Positions 42,135 through 51,203 of a stretch of DNA of 57,103 nucleotides are shown here, piece after piece. The first letter of the stretch is position 1. Every line of letters starts with the position of its first letter. A program made the translations under genes and the position numbers. The DNA comes from a virus (taxonomy: Duplodnaviria > Caudoviricetes). The stretch is from positions 1 through 57,103 of IMG/VR virus record IMGVR_UViG_3300005805_000105. One strand, given 5' to 3'. The notes beneath the pieces were generated by a model, which saw nothing but the letters and a program-made list of their open reading frames with translations, made no database searches and was not told the origin of the DNA.

Positions 42135-42163
42135 ATTATACCAATCGGTCAGATCATTGTCAA
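42135..42163 (-). promoter_or_regulatory. Consensus sigma70 promoter for rIIB
   Basis: TTGACA-17-TATAAT. Confidence 0.8.
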
Positions 42164-46455: not shown

Positions 46456-47219
46456 TCTTTTTCTAGAGCTTCCAATTTTTCAACCATAAATTCTATCCAC
46501 TCTTTATGGATACTGATTCTAGTATGTAGAGACTCTTCATTATAATTAGCATCAAGCTTACCGTCATTAGTCATAATGCAAGAATTAATACCGGCTAGCT
46601 TGTTATCTATAAACAAGCCGCCGCCACTGTCTCCACTACAAATCATGAACTCTAATGCTGTTTTAGGTGGCTTATTTACTGAGCATAATAACATGCCATT
46701 TGCTAAGCCATCTATTTTGTTTGATCCTGCTCTTTTGTTATTATCGTGCTTTGAGATACCTTTATCAAATGTACCAGTAAATCCAAAACCAGCAATACTA
46801 CATGTCTTGCCTACCTCATCATCTTTATCATATAACGATGGATAGAAATCTAGCTTGGCTTCTTTTTCTAAATAACATATAGCTATATCATATGGCCCCA
46901 TATCTTCATGTTTGTATTTTTCTAGCATAATAGATGCTAAAATATGAATCTTTTCTCCATTGAGCGTAATATAACAATCTTTTGCGGATTTAACAACATG
47001 TGCTGCCGTGAGAGCAATTCGTGGTTTAATTAAAACAGCAGAAGCTCTATATCTTGCCTTTGGTTGATCTTCAACTATACCATTAATTTCAACTACGCAT
47101 TCGTGCTGCTTACCGTATTCAATATATTTTTGATCACTTACTCTTGGATCAATAGTTCCAGCCTGTAAAATGCCTAATGAAGCTATAAACAGTATTAATG
47201 AGAGAAGAAAGTGCCTCAT
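46452..47219 (-). CDS. Secreted trypsin-like (S1) serine protease
   Basis: Signal peptide; LTAAHV, DIAI, SGDSGGGL. Confidence 0.88.
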   Translation of the reverse strand: MRHFLLSLILFIASLGILQAGTIDPRVSDQKYIEYGKQHECVVEINGIVEDQPKARYRASAVLIKPRIALTAAHVVKSAKDCYITLNGEKIHILASIMLEKYKHEDMGPYDIAICYLEKEAKLDFYPSLYDKDDEVGKTCSIAGFGFTGTFDKGISKHDNNKRAGSNKIDGLANGMLLCSVNKPPKTALEFMICSGDSGGGLFIDNKLAGINSCIMTNDGKLDANYNEESLHTRISIHKEWIEFMVEKLEALEKD

Positions 47220-47553
47220 ATAGATAACCCCTTTGAATAGGTTGAGAAAAGGTATGTGGTTTATTGTCTATCTGTTCTTTATATCTCTTACAGTCTTCGA
47301 CTACATTGACATTCCAACTACGATAATCCATTAAGTGGCCGAATACAAAATGACAATAATCGTCACATAATGTAATTAAATTAGTTGGATCTAATTCTCG
47401 CTCTGGATTTAGCTGATAAGGCTCTATATGATGTACTTCTAGGTTGTTTTTCCTACCACAAGCAGCGCATTCTGGATTATTAATTAGGTGGTTTTTACGC
47501 ACCGTTTTCCATTTTCCAGAACGTGATCCAAATATATCGAATGTATTAATCAT
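47149..47553 (-). CDS. HNH endonuclease
   Basis: CAACG..LEVHHI..NLITLC..CH. Confidence 0.8.
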   Translation of the reverse strand: MINTFDIFGSRSGKWKTVRKNHLINNPECAACGRKNNLEVHHIEPYQLNPERELDPTNLITLCDDYCHFVFGHLMDYRSWNVNVVEDCKRYKEQIDNKPHTFSQPIQRGYLYEALSSLINTVYSFIRHFTGWNY

Positions 47554-47569
47554 AGCTACTATATATACA

Positions 47570-48937
47570 CTATTTTCTGCGGTATGCTAGCGTATTAGTT
47601 GCGGCAAGTAGCTCATTAGACATATTATATACTTCTATTCTTACTCTATTATGACCTCTACGAAACCATGCAAGCTTGGGCTTGATATTAAAATTATGCA
47701 GTTGTGACTCACTAGATACATTAGAGACTGATTTTTGTGCATATACGACGCGATTATTAACATAAATCTTAACCATGATTCCTGTTCCGCTTTTGACCGT
47801 ATAGTTTATAGAACCTGCTATACGACCTGTATTAACTAATTTTAACTGTATGCTAGCCTGATCTGGCACTACAACAATAACAGGCGCTGGCTGAGATTCA
47901 ATGATCTTAGTATATGGCAATCCTAGAGCATGTTTAATTGCAGAACTAACGTTAATTTTGCCGCCTAGTAATTTATCTGCCATAGAATATATCTGATCTG
48001 CACTATCAATAATCGCTGATTTTATATCGGACATGCTAATATCTGGCTTAATAGATTTAATTAGACCTATAGTACCGGCAATAAATGGTGCTGCCATACT
48101 AGTACCGTTCAAGTATCTATATGTATTATTAAGAAAAGTACTCAGAATTCCACCGCCGGGAGCCGCCACATCTACGCTTGATTTTCCATAATTAGAAAAG
48201 GTTGATAATGTATTGCTTGATGATATAGATGCTACGGCTATTATATTATCTACATTATAAGAACTTGGATATCTTGGTGTAATGTCGCTGTTTGAGCCAC
48301 TATTGCCAGCGGCACATACAGATAAAATTTGTGCATCATTTAATTTCTGCATAGCAGCAAAAGTAGAATCACTAAATCCCAAGGTGCCGCCCCAACTATT
48401 ATTAACAGCAACAATATTTACTCCATGCTCTAATTTCATTTTAACTAAATAGTCTATAGCTTTTATTGCAGCGTATGTGTGTCCAACGCCAGCATTATCT
48501 ATCATTTTTAGTGGCATTATACTTACATTCCAATTTACCCCAGCAACACCAAGGTTATTATTTCCTTCTGCACCAATAATTCCTGCAACATGTGTGCCGT
48601 GGCCATAATAATCTTGCACATTGTTATTATCATCAATAAAATTCCAACCATTTATATCATCAATAAATCCATTATTGTCATTATCTATGCCGTCATTTTC
48701 TATCTCTCCATAATTTTTCCAAACATTATTTTTAAGATCTTCATGGTTTAAATCCATGCCACTATCTATTGTTGCAATAACAACGTTCTTATTGCCAGTA
48801 GAATAATTCCACGCCTCATTTAAAGAAGTACTGGCTATGCTCCACTGGCTTGCAGATAAACTATCATTAGAAATAGATAGTAATTGTCTATTTTCTAAAT
48901 ATTCAACGTGTAGTAGACTGTCCTTGTCCTTTTTCAT
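47570..48937 (-). CDS. Subtilisin-like (S8) protease with planctomycete-type N-terminal motif
   Basis: IDSG, GHGTHVAG, AAGN, GTSMAAP; N-terminal LHVEYLENRQLLS. Confidence 0.9.
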   Translation of the reverse strand: MKKDKDSLLHVEYLENRQLLSISNDSLSASQWSIASTSLNEAWNYSTGNKNVVIATIDSGMDLNHEDLKNNVWKNYGEIENDGIDNDNNGFIDDINGWNFIDDNNNVQDYYGHGTHVAGIIGAEGNNNLGVAGVNWNVSIMPLKMIDNAGVGHTYAAIKAIDYLVKMKLEHGVNIVAVNNSWGGTLGFSDSTFAAMQKLNDAQILSVCAAGNSGSNSDITPRYPSSYNVDNIIAVASISSSNTLSTFSNYGKSSVDVAAPGGGILSTFLNNTYRYLNGTSMAAPFIAGTIGLIKSIKPDISMSDIKSAIIDSADQIYSMADKLLGGKINVSSAIKHALGLPYTKIIESQPAPVIVVVPDQASIQLKLVNTGRIAGSINYTVKSGTGIMVKIYVNNRVVYAQKSVSNVSSESQLHNFNIKPKLAWFRRGHNRVRIEVYNMSNELLAATNTLAYRRK

Positions 48938-48952
48938 GTTTTACGTCCTTGT

Positions 48953-48991
48953 AAAAAACCAAAGGCAGGGGCAATTGCTCACCCCTGCCTT
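48953..48991 (-). terminator. Intrinsic terminator just upstream of the S8 gene
   Basis: AAGGCAGGGG/CCCCTGCCTT stem followed by TGGTTTTTT. Confidence 0.8.
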
Positions 48992-49066
48992 CTTCTATCC
49001 TCTGTCCTATAGCAATCCTTATGCTATCCTTGGAGAACAGTTGTCTTTTTGGTGTCGGGGTTCATC
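48953..49066 (-). ncRNA. Candidate GGA-rich (CsrB/RsmY/RsmZ-like) small RNA or attenuating leader
   Basis: TATAAT at 49071-49076, four AGGA motifs (one in the loop of ATAGCA-TAAGGAT-TGCTAT), then a terminator. Confidence 0.45.
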
Positions 49067-49114
49067 TTCTATTATATGATACCTACTTTCATATAGTTTG
49101 ACATAAGATTAAAA

Positions 49115-49699
49115 CTAAGACCACCAATGAGTCATATATTTAGACATAATACGAAATAGATCATCAATATCTTGCTGCATATCTGCCGAATCGGCCTCCA
49201 TGGCGATAATGAAATCTCTTCTTTCTTGCTCTTTTTCTTCTTGTGTCCAATGTTCTGAAGTCTTATTAACCATGGTAGATAATTTTAATCCACAATAGTC
49301 ATCTTCCACTGGTTCAAAAACATATTTTGGTTCACCGTATTTCTCATAATGTTTCTTAATATAATAGTCATAATGGTCTGCTGAATGAGAATGATAGTTA
49401 ATTTTATCACACAAATATACTGCTAATTTTAATGCTTTGAGAGACTTACCGTGTTCATGCCATTCATCATTTGTAAGATTATGTAGCATTCTCTTGAGTT
49501 TAAATCCAAGAACATCTAGAAAGAATGCATAATCCCAATCTTCATTTTTCCACGCAAGCTTGGCATACTGATATGATCTATGTATTTTTTCAAAGAAGTG
49601 TGCAATTCTATTGACACATCTTCTGTACCATCTAGGGCGGAATACTCTATCAACTACATCATTAAGCTCTTTAAGTCTTTTGCATGAATCCATGTCCAT
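49115..49699 (-). CDS. Hypothetical protein
   Basis: Intact ORF (EDWDY..L.FKL..M; C-terminal WW); start uncertain. Confidence 0.55.
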   Translation of the reverse strand: MDMDSCKRLKELNDVVDRVFRPRWYRRCVNRIAHFFEKIHRSYQYAKLAWKNEDWDYAFFLDVLGFKLKRMLHNLTNDEWHEHGKSLKALKLAVYLCDKINYHSHSADHYDYYIKKHYEKYGEPKYVFEPVEDDYCGLKLSTMVNKTSEHWTQEEKEQERRDFIIAMEADSADMQQDIDDLFRIMSKYMTHWWS

Positions 49700-49700
49700 A

Positions 49701-49892
49701 TTAATCATCTTCCTCGTCTTCATCGGGTTTCCAAAAACGACAGTAAAATCTATCACCTAGCTTATCAATCATAGACTGTGGGTATCCATTATCAACTAGC
49801 CACTTATTCATATCTGGATACTTATCCTGATCCCAAATCTTGGGAAATCCATATTGCCAGCCAGATGGCGGATCGCAGTACACTTTATTCAT
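49701..49892 (-). CDS. Small phage protein
   Basis: DPPSGWQYGFPK...WLVDNGYP. Confidence 0.6.
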   Translation of the reverse strand: MNKVYCDPPSGWQYGFPKIWDQDKYPDMNKWLVDNGYPQSMIDKLGDRFYCRFWKPDEDEEDD

Positions 49893-50259
49893 GTTCAAAC
49901 TCCAATAATTTTTGATGTAATATGTCTAGTGATATTTGTTTATCTTCGCTGAATGTCCTTGTATTTTTACTATGTGTCCTTTCCATATGGCAATTAGAAC
50001 ACATTACTTGGCATTTCTTTATCTCGTTAATCAGATCATCAATGCTAATATGTCTTGTATAAAGACGATACATTCCTCCAGCACAAGTACGCTTAGAACA
50101 TCCATTCTTTGTTATTTCTGTCTTTTCAAACTCTGGTAAATGGTCAAAGCATAATGCTGATGGGTGCTTATTATATCCACAGATACAGCAACCTACAGAT
50201 AATTTATATAAATCTACTTGTTCATGTCTAAATGCTATAATCTGTTTATTTGTTTTCAT
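49885..50259 (-). CDS. HNH-like endonuclease
   Basis: CCICGY..ALCFDH..EIKKCQVMCSNCH. Confidence 0.7.
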   Translation of the reverse strand: MKTNKQIIAFRHEQVDLYKLSVGCCICGYNKHPSALCFDHLPEFEKTEITKNGCSKRTCAGGMYRLYTRHISIDDLINEIKKCQVMCSNCHMERTHSKNTRTFSEDKQISLDILHQKLLEFEHE

Positions 50260-50263
50260 AGTT

Positions 50264-50797
50264 TTAGAATTTATGTGCCACAGTTTTGCAAAAATCTATG
50301 ACCTCTTCATCTGAAAATACATTCCTAGCATAATTAAAAATAAGAGCAACAAATCGTATATTGCCTTTAATATATCCTTTTGTATTATCTATTCTATCTA
50401 AAGATGCCTGATACGGCGCTTTGTCTTGTTTATAACTATGAGTTCTAAGAGTTAACTTGCGTCCTGTAATTGGGCATATACCCTTTTGCAACTCCCAAAG
50501 ATCTTTTAGGTATTGCAAATCAATATCATATGTTTGTTTTCTTTTTTTGGAATGCTGTATTACTACTTTAATATACCATCTAAAATCAGCATATCCGTCT
50601 GGCTGTCTAATGTATTTTGTGTCTGTAAAGTTGTGATGAAATTGTGATATATGCTTGATATTGTTTTTATTTTTACCATAACATTTTAAATTACAATAAA
50701 ATTGAGTTTGTCCTTTTTTTAGTTGTCTATTAATTTCTGATAATCTTTTAGTTACTTTTTGCCCACATGAAGCACATGTTATTATAGTAGATTTCAT
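50264..50797 (-). CDS. HNH-type homing endonuclease
   Basis: CASCG..YCNLKC; QKGICPITG..ASLDRIDNTKGYIKGNIRFV..N; ATG 50797 after AAGGAG. Confidence 0.8.
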   Translation of the reverse strand: MKSTIITCASCGQKVTKRLSEINRQLKKGQTQFYCNLKCYGKNKNNIKHISQFHHNFTDTKYIRQPDGYADFRWYIKVVIQHSKKRKQTYDIDLQYLKDLWELQKGICPITGRKLTLRTHSYKQDKAPYQASLDRIDNTKGYIKGNIRFVALIFNYARNVFSDEEVIDFCKTVAHKF

Positions 50798-50830
50798 AAT
50801 ATTCTCCTTTAATGTATTATACACTAAAAG

Positions 50831-50861
50831 TGGAGGTGGGCTGTTATAAATGGAGGTGGGC
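50831..50861. repeat. 11-nt direct repeat of the tmRNA 3' end
   Basis: tggaggtgggc at 50831-50841 and 50851-50861. Confidence 0.9.
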
Positions 50862-51203
50862 AGAGTCGAACTGCCGTCTTGCGATACTTCTAATTACATC
50901 TTCTACAAGTTTAGATTATTCATAATAATTCGGGCATGACTAAAGAATAAACAACATTCGCCAACCCTAGTGACACATCTTAGCCCGTTAACCGTCACCA
51001 CTAACGGGAGCCGAAGGATTTTACGACAATCTTTTGAACGCTACCTTCATCGCTTTCTAAGATTGTTGCTACCTTTTATTAAGCAGCAAGAGCTAACTGA
51101 TTTGCGCCAGTTAAAGCGTTTAATCGACTTTTAAAGTGGCCGGTCGATCAACCACTACTTGCTAATATAATCTTCCATATCCAATCGATACCTTTACACC
51201 CCC
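50851..51203 (-). ncRNA. ssrA: tmRNA, 353 nt; tag (A)GANQLALAA
   Basis: Acceptor GGGGGTG/CACCTCC-A with G3.U70; T-arm GGCAG-TTCGACT-CTGCC; TAACT then tag ORF 51108-51079 ending GCT GCT TAA; CCA not encoded. Confidence 0.93.

Follow-up and report, generated by a model that had tools for sequence, protein, structure and literature searches.

The ribosome-binding site (RBS) of a phage gene for a subtilisin-family (S8) serine protease lies in a short hairpin which, judged from comparison with related loci, appears to be a conserved feature of the phage S8 protease gene family. We analysed this hairpin and the gap in front of the gene in a DNA stretch of 57,103 bp, the whole IMG/VR viral record IMGVR_UViG_3300005805_000105 (here called the window; completeness estimate 37%). 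All window features described below are on the minus strand unless otherwise indicated. In our preferred reading, to which we assign a probability of about one half, an ordinary terminator closes the upstream transcription unit and dampens the transcription that continues into the protease gene, and the conserved hairpin presents the Shine-Dalgarno sequence in a GGA hexaloop. The hairpin is the best-supported part of this reading. If the reading is true, the region is ordinary phage punctuation, made of a leaky terminator and a structured RBS. An earlier note on the same DNA had proposed that the region binds the host regulator CsrA, on the protease RBS, on a short sponge RNA, or both.

The hairpin at the protease ribosome-binding site

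The protease gene (47570..48937) encodes 455 aa, matches Pfam PF00082 (E 8.8e-55) and PHROG 3677 (protease), and has an in-frame TAA two codons before its ATG. Its RBS hairpin, UUUUAC[AAGGAC]GUAAAA (48939..48956), carries the Shine-Dalgarno sequence in the hexaloop, while its 5' arm is supplied by the last part of the terminator U-tract, an overlap already described in the earlier note. The hairpin forms with a pair probability of 0.75 and the GGA is unpaired with a probability of 0.85-0.97. Among 98 control RBSs, only one has a 6-bp stem in any register.

The protease has many relatives, 46-59% identical. A profile of 24 proteases retrieved 78 viral loci, of which 56 were analysed; the other 22 (L055, L056, L058, L060-L072 and L074-L079) were left out before counting as distant or partial. 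After removal of identical upstream sequences, L038, L049, L052, L054 and L073 were dropped for having no GGA 4-18 nt from the start. The final set comprises 35 relatives and the window, that is 36 unique RBS sequences which are related to each other, so that their counts are not independent. The controls are 98 AGGA-type RBSs of other open reading frames (ORFs) in the same loci and in the window.

The results show that a stem of at least 3 bp closing an NN-GGA-N hexaloop in this fixed register is present in 20 of the 36 S8 RBSs as opposed to 7 of the 98 controls. The stems are of at least ten kinds: UUUUAC/GUAAAA, UCGU/ACGA, (U)CGA/UCG(A), AGC/GCU, CGC/GUG, AGA/UCU, UGA/UCA, CUA/UAG, UAC/GUG and UAAUU/AAUUA. 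A further class among the relatives, GGU/ACC, closes a five-base loop. When the sequences are aligned on the GGA, the inner three pairs form in 28, 31 and 23 of the 36, and each of them draws on four pair types. The covariation score of 0.374 is reached by none of 500 shuffles and falls to 0.10-0.17 once the partner is shifted by 1-3 columns. The base after the GGA also differs: it is C in 20/36 S8 RBSs and 15/98 controls, and G in 5/36 and 32/98, respectively.

This amounts to a new RNA motif matching no Rfam family, namely a short hairpin with covarying stems and the Shine-Dalgarno sequence in an A(A)GGA(C/A) loop. No Rfam family was found in the loci of 18 relatives. Many large phages that are unrelated to one another carry it before their S8 protease gene, along with a promoter and a leader that are also conserved, and it is a candidate translational operator. 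Translation of the protease would start from a Shine-Dalgarno sequence held in the hexaloop, and the hairpin would most likely adjust how readily ribosomes gain access, acting alone or as the operator for a GGA-loop-recognising protein. A GGA-loop hairpin fits a CsrA-type clamp, another loop-binding protein and simple display of the Shine-Dalgarno sequence equally well. Were a CsrA-family protein or another GGA-loop binder the partner, phages would time an auxiliary protease via a global regulator of the host.

The replicase hairpin of MS2 is a translational operator of a phage. The protease hairpin resembles such operators (MS2 replicase; T4 RegA, gp32 and gp43, PMC3014915) in being a small RBS element of one gene that is conserved among related phages. 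It differs from them in that the Shine-Dalgarno sequence is displayed in the loop instead of being paired, and no partner protein is known. The RegA sites of T4 are described in PMC3014915 as unstructured and A+U-rich, whereas the element of the window is a hairpin.

Two leaders of the relatives present a different fold. In L024:2368-2449 and L034:2368-2449 the RBS has a complementary stretch immediately behind the promoter (in L034, UCGAGUCCU faces AGGACUCGA), and in the folds the Shine-Dalgarno sequence is fully paired with this earlier stretch of the leader; in some lineages such leaders might act as a switch that sequesters the RBS. Within the window, a Shine-Dalgarno sequence in a hexaloop with four closing pairs also occurs at the thioredoxin gene (51557, CUAU[AUGGAG]AUAG) and at ORF 21050-20823 (21060, UUUU[UAGGAG]AAAA). 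We considered a regulon of such sites and rejected it: NN-GGA-N hexaloops with at least four pairs number 27 in the window versus about 20 expected, and only those of the S8 gene, thioredoxin and ORF 21050 are on an RBS.

Transcription into the protease gene

The Rho-independent terminator predicted from the sequence (48953..48992) has a stem of 14 pairs, seven of them G-C (48992-48961), closed by a GCAA loop and followed by GG and six U, the stem-loop and U-tract expected of an intrinsic terminator. The earlier note had placed a strong intrinsic terminator after the AGGA run, and this assignment is borne out. A terminator scan of 38-57 kb (19 kb) gave only two strong ones, of which this is one. 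It is the dominant element in the fold of the gap (z -3.5 for the gap, z -5.0 for 49064-48953). The distance from the terminator to the protease ATG is 23 nt with no promoter between them, and the protease would therefore depend on read-through. The second strong terminator (41214-41179) stands directly after rIIB and is followed by an IMPDH/GMP-reductase-like gene with no recognisable promoter between; the layout of a terminator and then a gene thus occurs twice in this phage. Elsewhere, terminator, promoter and RBS are found in the normal order.

We propose that two transcription units meet in the gap. RNA reaching the terminator would come from the unit that starts at a perfect promoter before the transfer-messenger RNA (tmRNA) gene, and perhaps also from a weak TATAATAG promoter in the gap; the terminator would stop most of the RNA from upstream. 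The S8 protease, and probably also the HNH and trypsin-like genes downstream, would then depend on read-through RNA and be expressed less strongly. The last gene of the upstream unit would be an ORF of unassigned function taken from the ORF list (49115..49756; product of 194 aa in the collection), for which no Pfam, PHROG or NCBIfam match was found. Its one relative, 78% identical, lies on a Logan contig. A metagenome scan with an alignment of this ORF gave no relative, and when viral contigs were scanned with one or the other flanking protein, no orthologous gap was retrieved.

Phage early units can be punctuated by intrinsic terminators, with the genes downstream expressed by read-through, as is the case for the delayed-early genes of T4. 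The junction before the protease is like terminators of this type in having a G+C-rich stem and a U-tract at the end of a unit, behind its last gene, and a promoterless next gene, an arrangement also present after rIIB. It departs from them in two respects: about 120 nt with an AGGA-rich structure stand between the stop codon and the terminator, and the U-tract doubles as an arm of the RBS hairpin of the next gene.

In most relatives, by comparison, the protease has a promoter of its own, with a TTGAC(T/A) -35 element, a spacing of about 13 nt, a conserved extended -10 element TTTTTCTGnTAnnnT and a leader of 45-50 nt. This promoter and leader unit is present in L002-L053 about 100 nt before the start (e.g. 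L009:2404-2485), often with a TCACAAA stretch. Together with the S8 gene it looks like a mobile, self-contained cassette, because the neighbouring genes differ between loci. A terminator precedes the S8 promoter in five relatives (L030, L031, L033, L039 and L047). The window differs in that the terminator and an AGGA-rich segment take the place of the promoter. No GGA array stands before the related S8 genes, which have 0-3 AGGA in -160..+25, usually the Shine-Dalgarno sequence only.

The AGGA-rich gap and alternative explanations

On the minus strand, AGGA starts at 49030, 49019, 49008, 49001, 48949, 48930 and 48924. The four AGGA in about 35 nt, one of them in a hairpin loop (UAAGGAU), and the total of seven in about 110 nt are as the earlier note had counted them, including the two in the first codons; one of the seven is the Shine-Dalgarno sequence, and those at 48930 and 48924 arise from the protease codons K-D-K-D (codons 3-6). 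The minus strand of the window holds 239 AGGA sites (4.19 per kb). No place in the window has more than four AGGA in 35 nt, yet 39 of 300 dinucleotide shuffles contain as many; plain GGA has its window maximum elsewhere, not at the gap. The region from -70 to +30 of the protease start holds four extra GGA, and as many or more are found in 11 of 100 control leaders. AAGGA is simply the usual Shine-Dalgarno sequence of this phage, with 104 copies on the coding strand and 17 on the other. An origin of the AGGA run by tandem repetition was rejected: Tandem Repeats Finder (TRF) found no repeat, and the repeat families in 44-57 kb leave the gap untouched.

Four of these motifs belong to a stem-loop (48995..49040) with an outer 8-bp stem (CUGUUCUC/GAGGAUAG), an internal loop and an inner 6-bp stem. 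The inner hairpin, AUAGCA[UAAGGAU]UGCUAU, has one GGA in its 7-base loop; two others are in the internal loop and the fourth is paired. Folded alone, the stem-loop reaches -15 kcal/mol (z -2.6; 3 of 200 shuffles are as good), and it keeps the same structure in longer folds. A degenerate 27-mer of it had no match in viral contigs. Its AGGA density is real, and the element, which is particular to this phage, would most likely be a structured 3' end or a leader segment. On the plus strand, an ORF at 48837-49079 belongs to no family, runs against the gene strand and was judged spurious.

The gap also carries TATAATAG (49069..49076), with TATAAT at 49076-49071 as previously reported. The clear promoters of the phage combine a TTGACA-like -35 element, a 17-nt spacer and TATAATAG as extended -10 element, as is the case at 42140, 39178, 38183 and 2966. 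The minus strand has ten copies of TATAATAG, five of them intergenic, and four of these five have a -35 element matching 4-6 of 6 positions. The -10 element of the gap is probably not accidental. Its best -35 element, which the earlier note had rightly called weak, matches 2/6, and there is no TG extension, so that the gap promoter is at best weak or factor-dependent. A promoter scan offered an alternative in the gap, ATGTCA-17-TATCAT (9/12), at a level that is common in shuffles. The late promoter motif of T4, TATAAATA, occurs 9 times in the window versus 10.5 expected and is absent from the gap.

Several observations weigh against the reading of an ordinary terminator and an RBS-displaying hairpin. 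The hairpin contrast depends on the measure: a permissive one separates S8 RBSs and controls weakly (29/36 versus 54/98), and it was replaced by the fixed-register test for its poor discrimination. As stated above, the S8 counts are not independent. When the unique leaders were folded, a pair probability of at least 0.5 was seen only in the window, L015, L026, L031 and L033; three-pair stems are too weak to fold unaided, which argues for a bound factor instead of a self-sufficient structure. In addition, the hairpin of the window closely fits the form of a CsrA site in the published selection experiments discussed below. TATAATAG is unlikely to stand in the 177-nt gap by chance, because it occurs only five times in the gene-covered part, most of the 57 kb by our estimate, and the gap may start its own RNA. 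The AGGA cluster as a whole is denser than chance and asks for an explanation: none of the 300 shuffles contained seven AGGA in 110 nt (the largest number was 6, in 17 shuffles) and none contained four AGGAC in 110 nt. Finally, an AGGAC run is also found in another leader of the same phage (33706-33675).

That second AGGA-dense leader (33718-33644) has four AGGA in 75 nt, with TATAAATAG, then UUAGGACUAGGACUUUUCAGGAAGUGGAC and then a strong RBS. It is unstructured (z +1.2), lies directly 3' of the gene with sigma-70 region 4 (34195-33719) and precedes a 211-aa ORF of no assigned function.

We then consider whether a dimer of the host CsrA/Rsm protein binds the AAGGAC hexaloop, bridges to a neighbouring GGA, be it in codons 3-6 or, where the RNA results from read-through, in the stem-loop upstream, and blocks the ribosome. 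Protease synthesis would in that event follow the Csr state of the host. According to PMC7652899, ligands of CsrA obtained by SELEX have ACA and GGA as invariant bases, with the GGA in a hairpin loop in 51 of 55; 44 have hexaloops with AC/GU pairing, and most stems have at most 4 pairs. The sequence UAC[AAGGAC]GUA of the window has this form, with ACA and GGA and a GGA-bearing hexaloop closed by AC/GU in a short hairpin, and UACAAGGACGU departs from the SELEX core at one of 11 positions, in line with the 10 matches noted before. The site also overlaps the Shine-Dalgarno sequence and has six more GGA within 110 nt, features which are shared by the known mRNA sites of CsrA/RsmA (RUACARGGAUGU; leaders of glgC, cstA and hag). 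Compared to these, the loop of the window ends in C and not in U, and its stem has 6 pairs. In favour of the same explanation, the GGA-loop hairpin is conserved in the S8 relatives with covarying stems that are too weak without a clamp, and phages are known to carry csrA (30 of 2517 genomes in PMC7366521).

Conservation of the hairpin would not, by itself, entail CsrA binding. The relatives keep the loop and mostly not the ACA (e.g. CGAAAGGA or GGTAGGA, whereas the window has ACAAGGA), nor do they have an excess of second GGA sites near the start (an average of 1.16 versus 1.35 in controls). The RsmE-type 10-mer WCANGGANGW is not enriched in the window (9 versus 5.45 expected), and an AAGGA at this position is what the usual Shine-Dalgarno sequence of the phage would supply. 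The CsrA family PF02599 is absent from the 37%-complete contig, where the earlier note had suggested looking for it, and from 5/5 complete S8-bearing phages; csrA is patchily distributed among bacteria, according to PMC7366521. The earlier claim of a CsrA-type site on the protease RBS is partly supported: the SELEX-like structure and the hairpin kept in relatives hold up, while the ACA and second sites of the relatives and the search for csrA lend it no support. As a partner for the hairpin, CsrA would be a reasonable and possible guess; control of the protease by a bridging host dimer is, on balance, doubtful.

A different factor, either a repressor of translation encoded by the phage or an endoribonuclease like RegB, with cleavage at GGAG/U, could also act here, with hairpins protecting or exposing its sites. 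According to PMC3014915, RegB of T4 cleaves intergenic GGAG/U of early genes, and RNA structure shields these sites. There are three GGAU in the gap, the S8 RBSs avoid GGAG (the deficit of G after GGA given above), and two leaders of this phage carry AGGAC runs. On the other hand, the 70 ORFs scanned against Pfam on the 37%-complete contig include no family of RNA-binding regulators or endoribonucleases. A repressor site of the RegA kind would be unlike the RBS hairpin, and a RegB-like enzyme is less expected in a phage that is no close relative of T4. We consider this explanation unlikely.

It is very unlikely that the phage plugs into the Csr/Rsm system of the host twice, with a CsrA-controlled GGA-hexaloop operator, conserved across diverse phage S8 protease genes, and, in this phage, a GGA-rich decoy of about 110 nt, made from the same leader and released at the terminator, that lifts repression as infection proceeds. 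Our literature search, at the level of listings, turned up no phage-encoded CsrA decoy RNA. The decoy or sponge taken by itself, an RNA of about 110 nt (112 nt) running from TATAATAG to the terminator and titrating host CsrA like RsmX/Y/Z, is highly improbable. Its size and layout, four GGA and then a strong terminator, do resemble those of the Rsm small RNAs; the -10 element is of the phage's own type, the 112-nt RNA folds at z -5.0, mostly owing to the terminator, and the AGGA density exceeds that of shuffles. Against this stand the poor -35 element without TG extension, the single GGA in a hairpin loop (two being in the internal loop and one paired), a number of sites that is low for a sponge, the lack of any copy elsewhere in viral contigs or of an array in the S8 relatives, and the lack of csrA in the contig and in the five complete phages. 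The comparison with CsrB/RsmX/Y/Z in Rfam that the earlier note had called for gave nothing, whether in the window at the gathering score or in 48850-49200 with E values of up to 10. The putative RNA is thus like CsrB/C and RsmX/Y/Z in being GGA-rich, of about 110 nt and with a Rho-independent terminator at its end, and differs in matching no Rfam family, in having four GGA with one in a hairpin loop, in lacking a -35 element, in being borne by a phage and in being immediately followed by a gene with an RBS that overlaps the tail of the terminator.

A leader-peptide attenuator, in which translation of a 13-codon upstream ORF (MNPDTKKTTVLQG, 49024..49065) decides whether the terminator forms, is barely credible: the ORF exists as first reported, its AUG is about where a transcript from TATAATAG would begin and could be leaderless, and its ACCCC could pair with GGGGU of the 5' arm of the terminator, but it has neither a preceding Shine-Dalgarno sequence nor a run of regulatory codons, no antiterminator or other alternative fold appears in the minimum free energy or centroid structures, and five pairs cannot compete with the 14-pair terminator.

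Genome setting

The contig has a G+C content of 37% and essentially all genes on the minus strand, and the phage is large and lytic. Its genes include rIIA, rIIB, a UvsX-like recombinase, ribonucleotide reductase, PhoH, a primase, a helicase, a DnaE-type polymerase, ThyX, a bacterial-type (OB-fold) single-stranded DNA-binding protein (SSB) and a protein with sigma-70 region 4. The DnaE-like polymerase and the SSB of bacterial OB-fold type indicate that, as judged from gene content, this is not a close relative of T4. The nearest relatives of rIIA, about 33% identical, are from proteobacterial phages and one uncultured huge phage, the polymerase is about 30% identical to that of Firmicutes phages, and cellular relatives of the S8 protease reach at most 48% identity and are scattered across many phyla; none of these relatives names a host. 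The nearest cultured or deposited phages are only about 30-33% identical in rIIA or polymerase, and the lineage is poorly sampled.

The one-piece, phage-borne tmRNA (50848-51203; Rfam RF00023, 110 bits) has the short tag GANQLALAA, and its promoter (51338-51310), a perfect TTGACA-17-TATAAT, lies inside the 3' end of the thioredoxin gene. Two genes of the HNH/endonuclease VII type come after the tmRNA. In the region 47149-50824 the S8 protease is flanked by three genes of this type (50797-50264, 50259-49885 and 47553-47149), the last of which overlaps the gene for a trypsin-like protease (47219-46452), suggesting that the protease region was shaped by homing endonucleases. With the S8 and trypsin-like enzymes and a papain-like one, the contig carries three proteases. 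Inside an endonuclease gene, 55 nt (50353-50407) are 89% identical to the uncultured phage records LR756501 and LR756503 (735 kb each), the sole match of the window at the DNA level in the phage collection.

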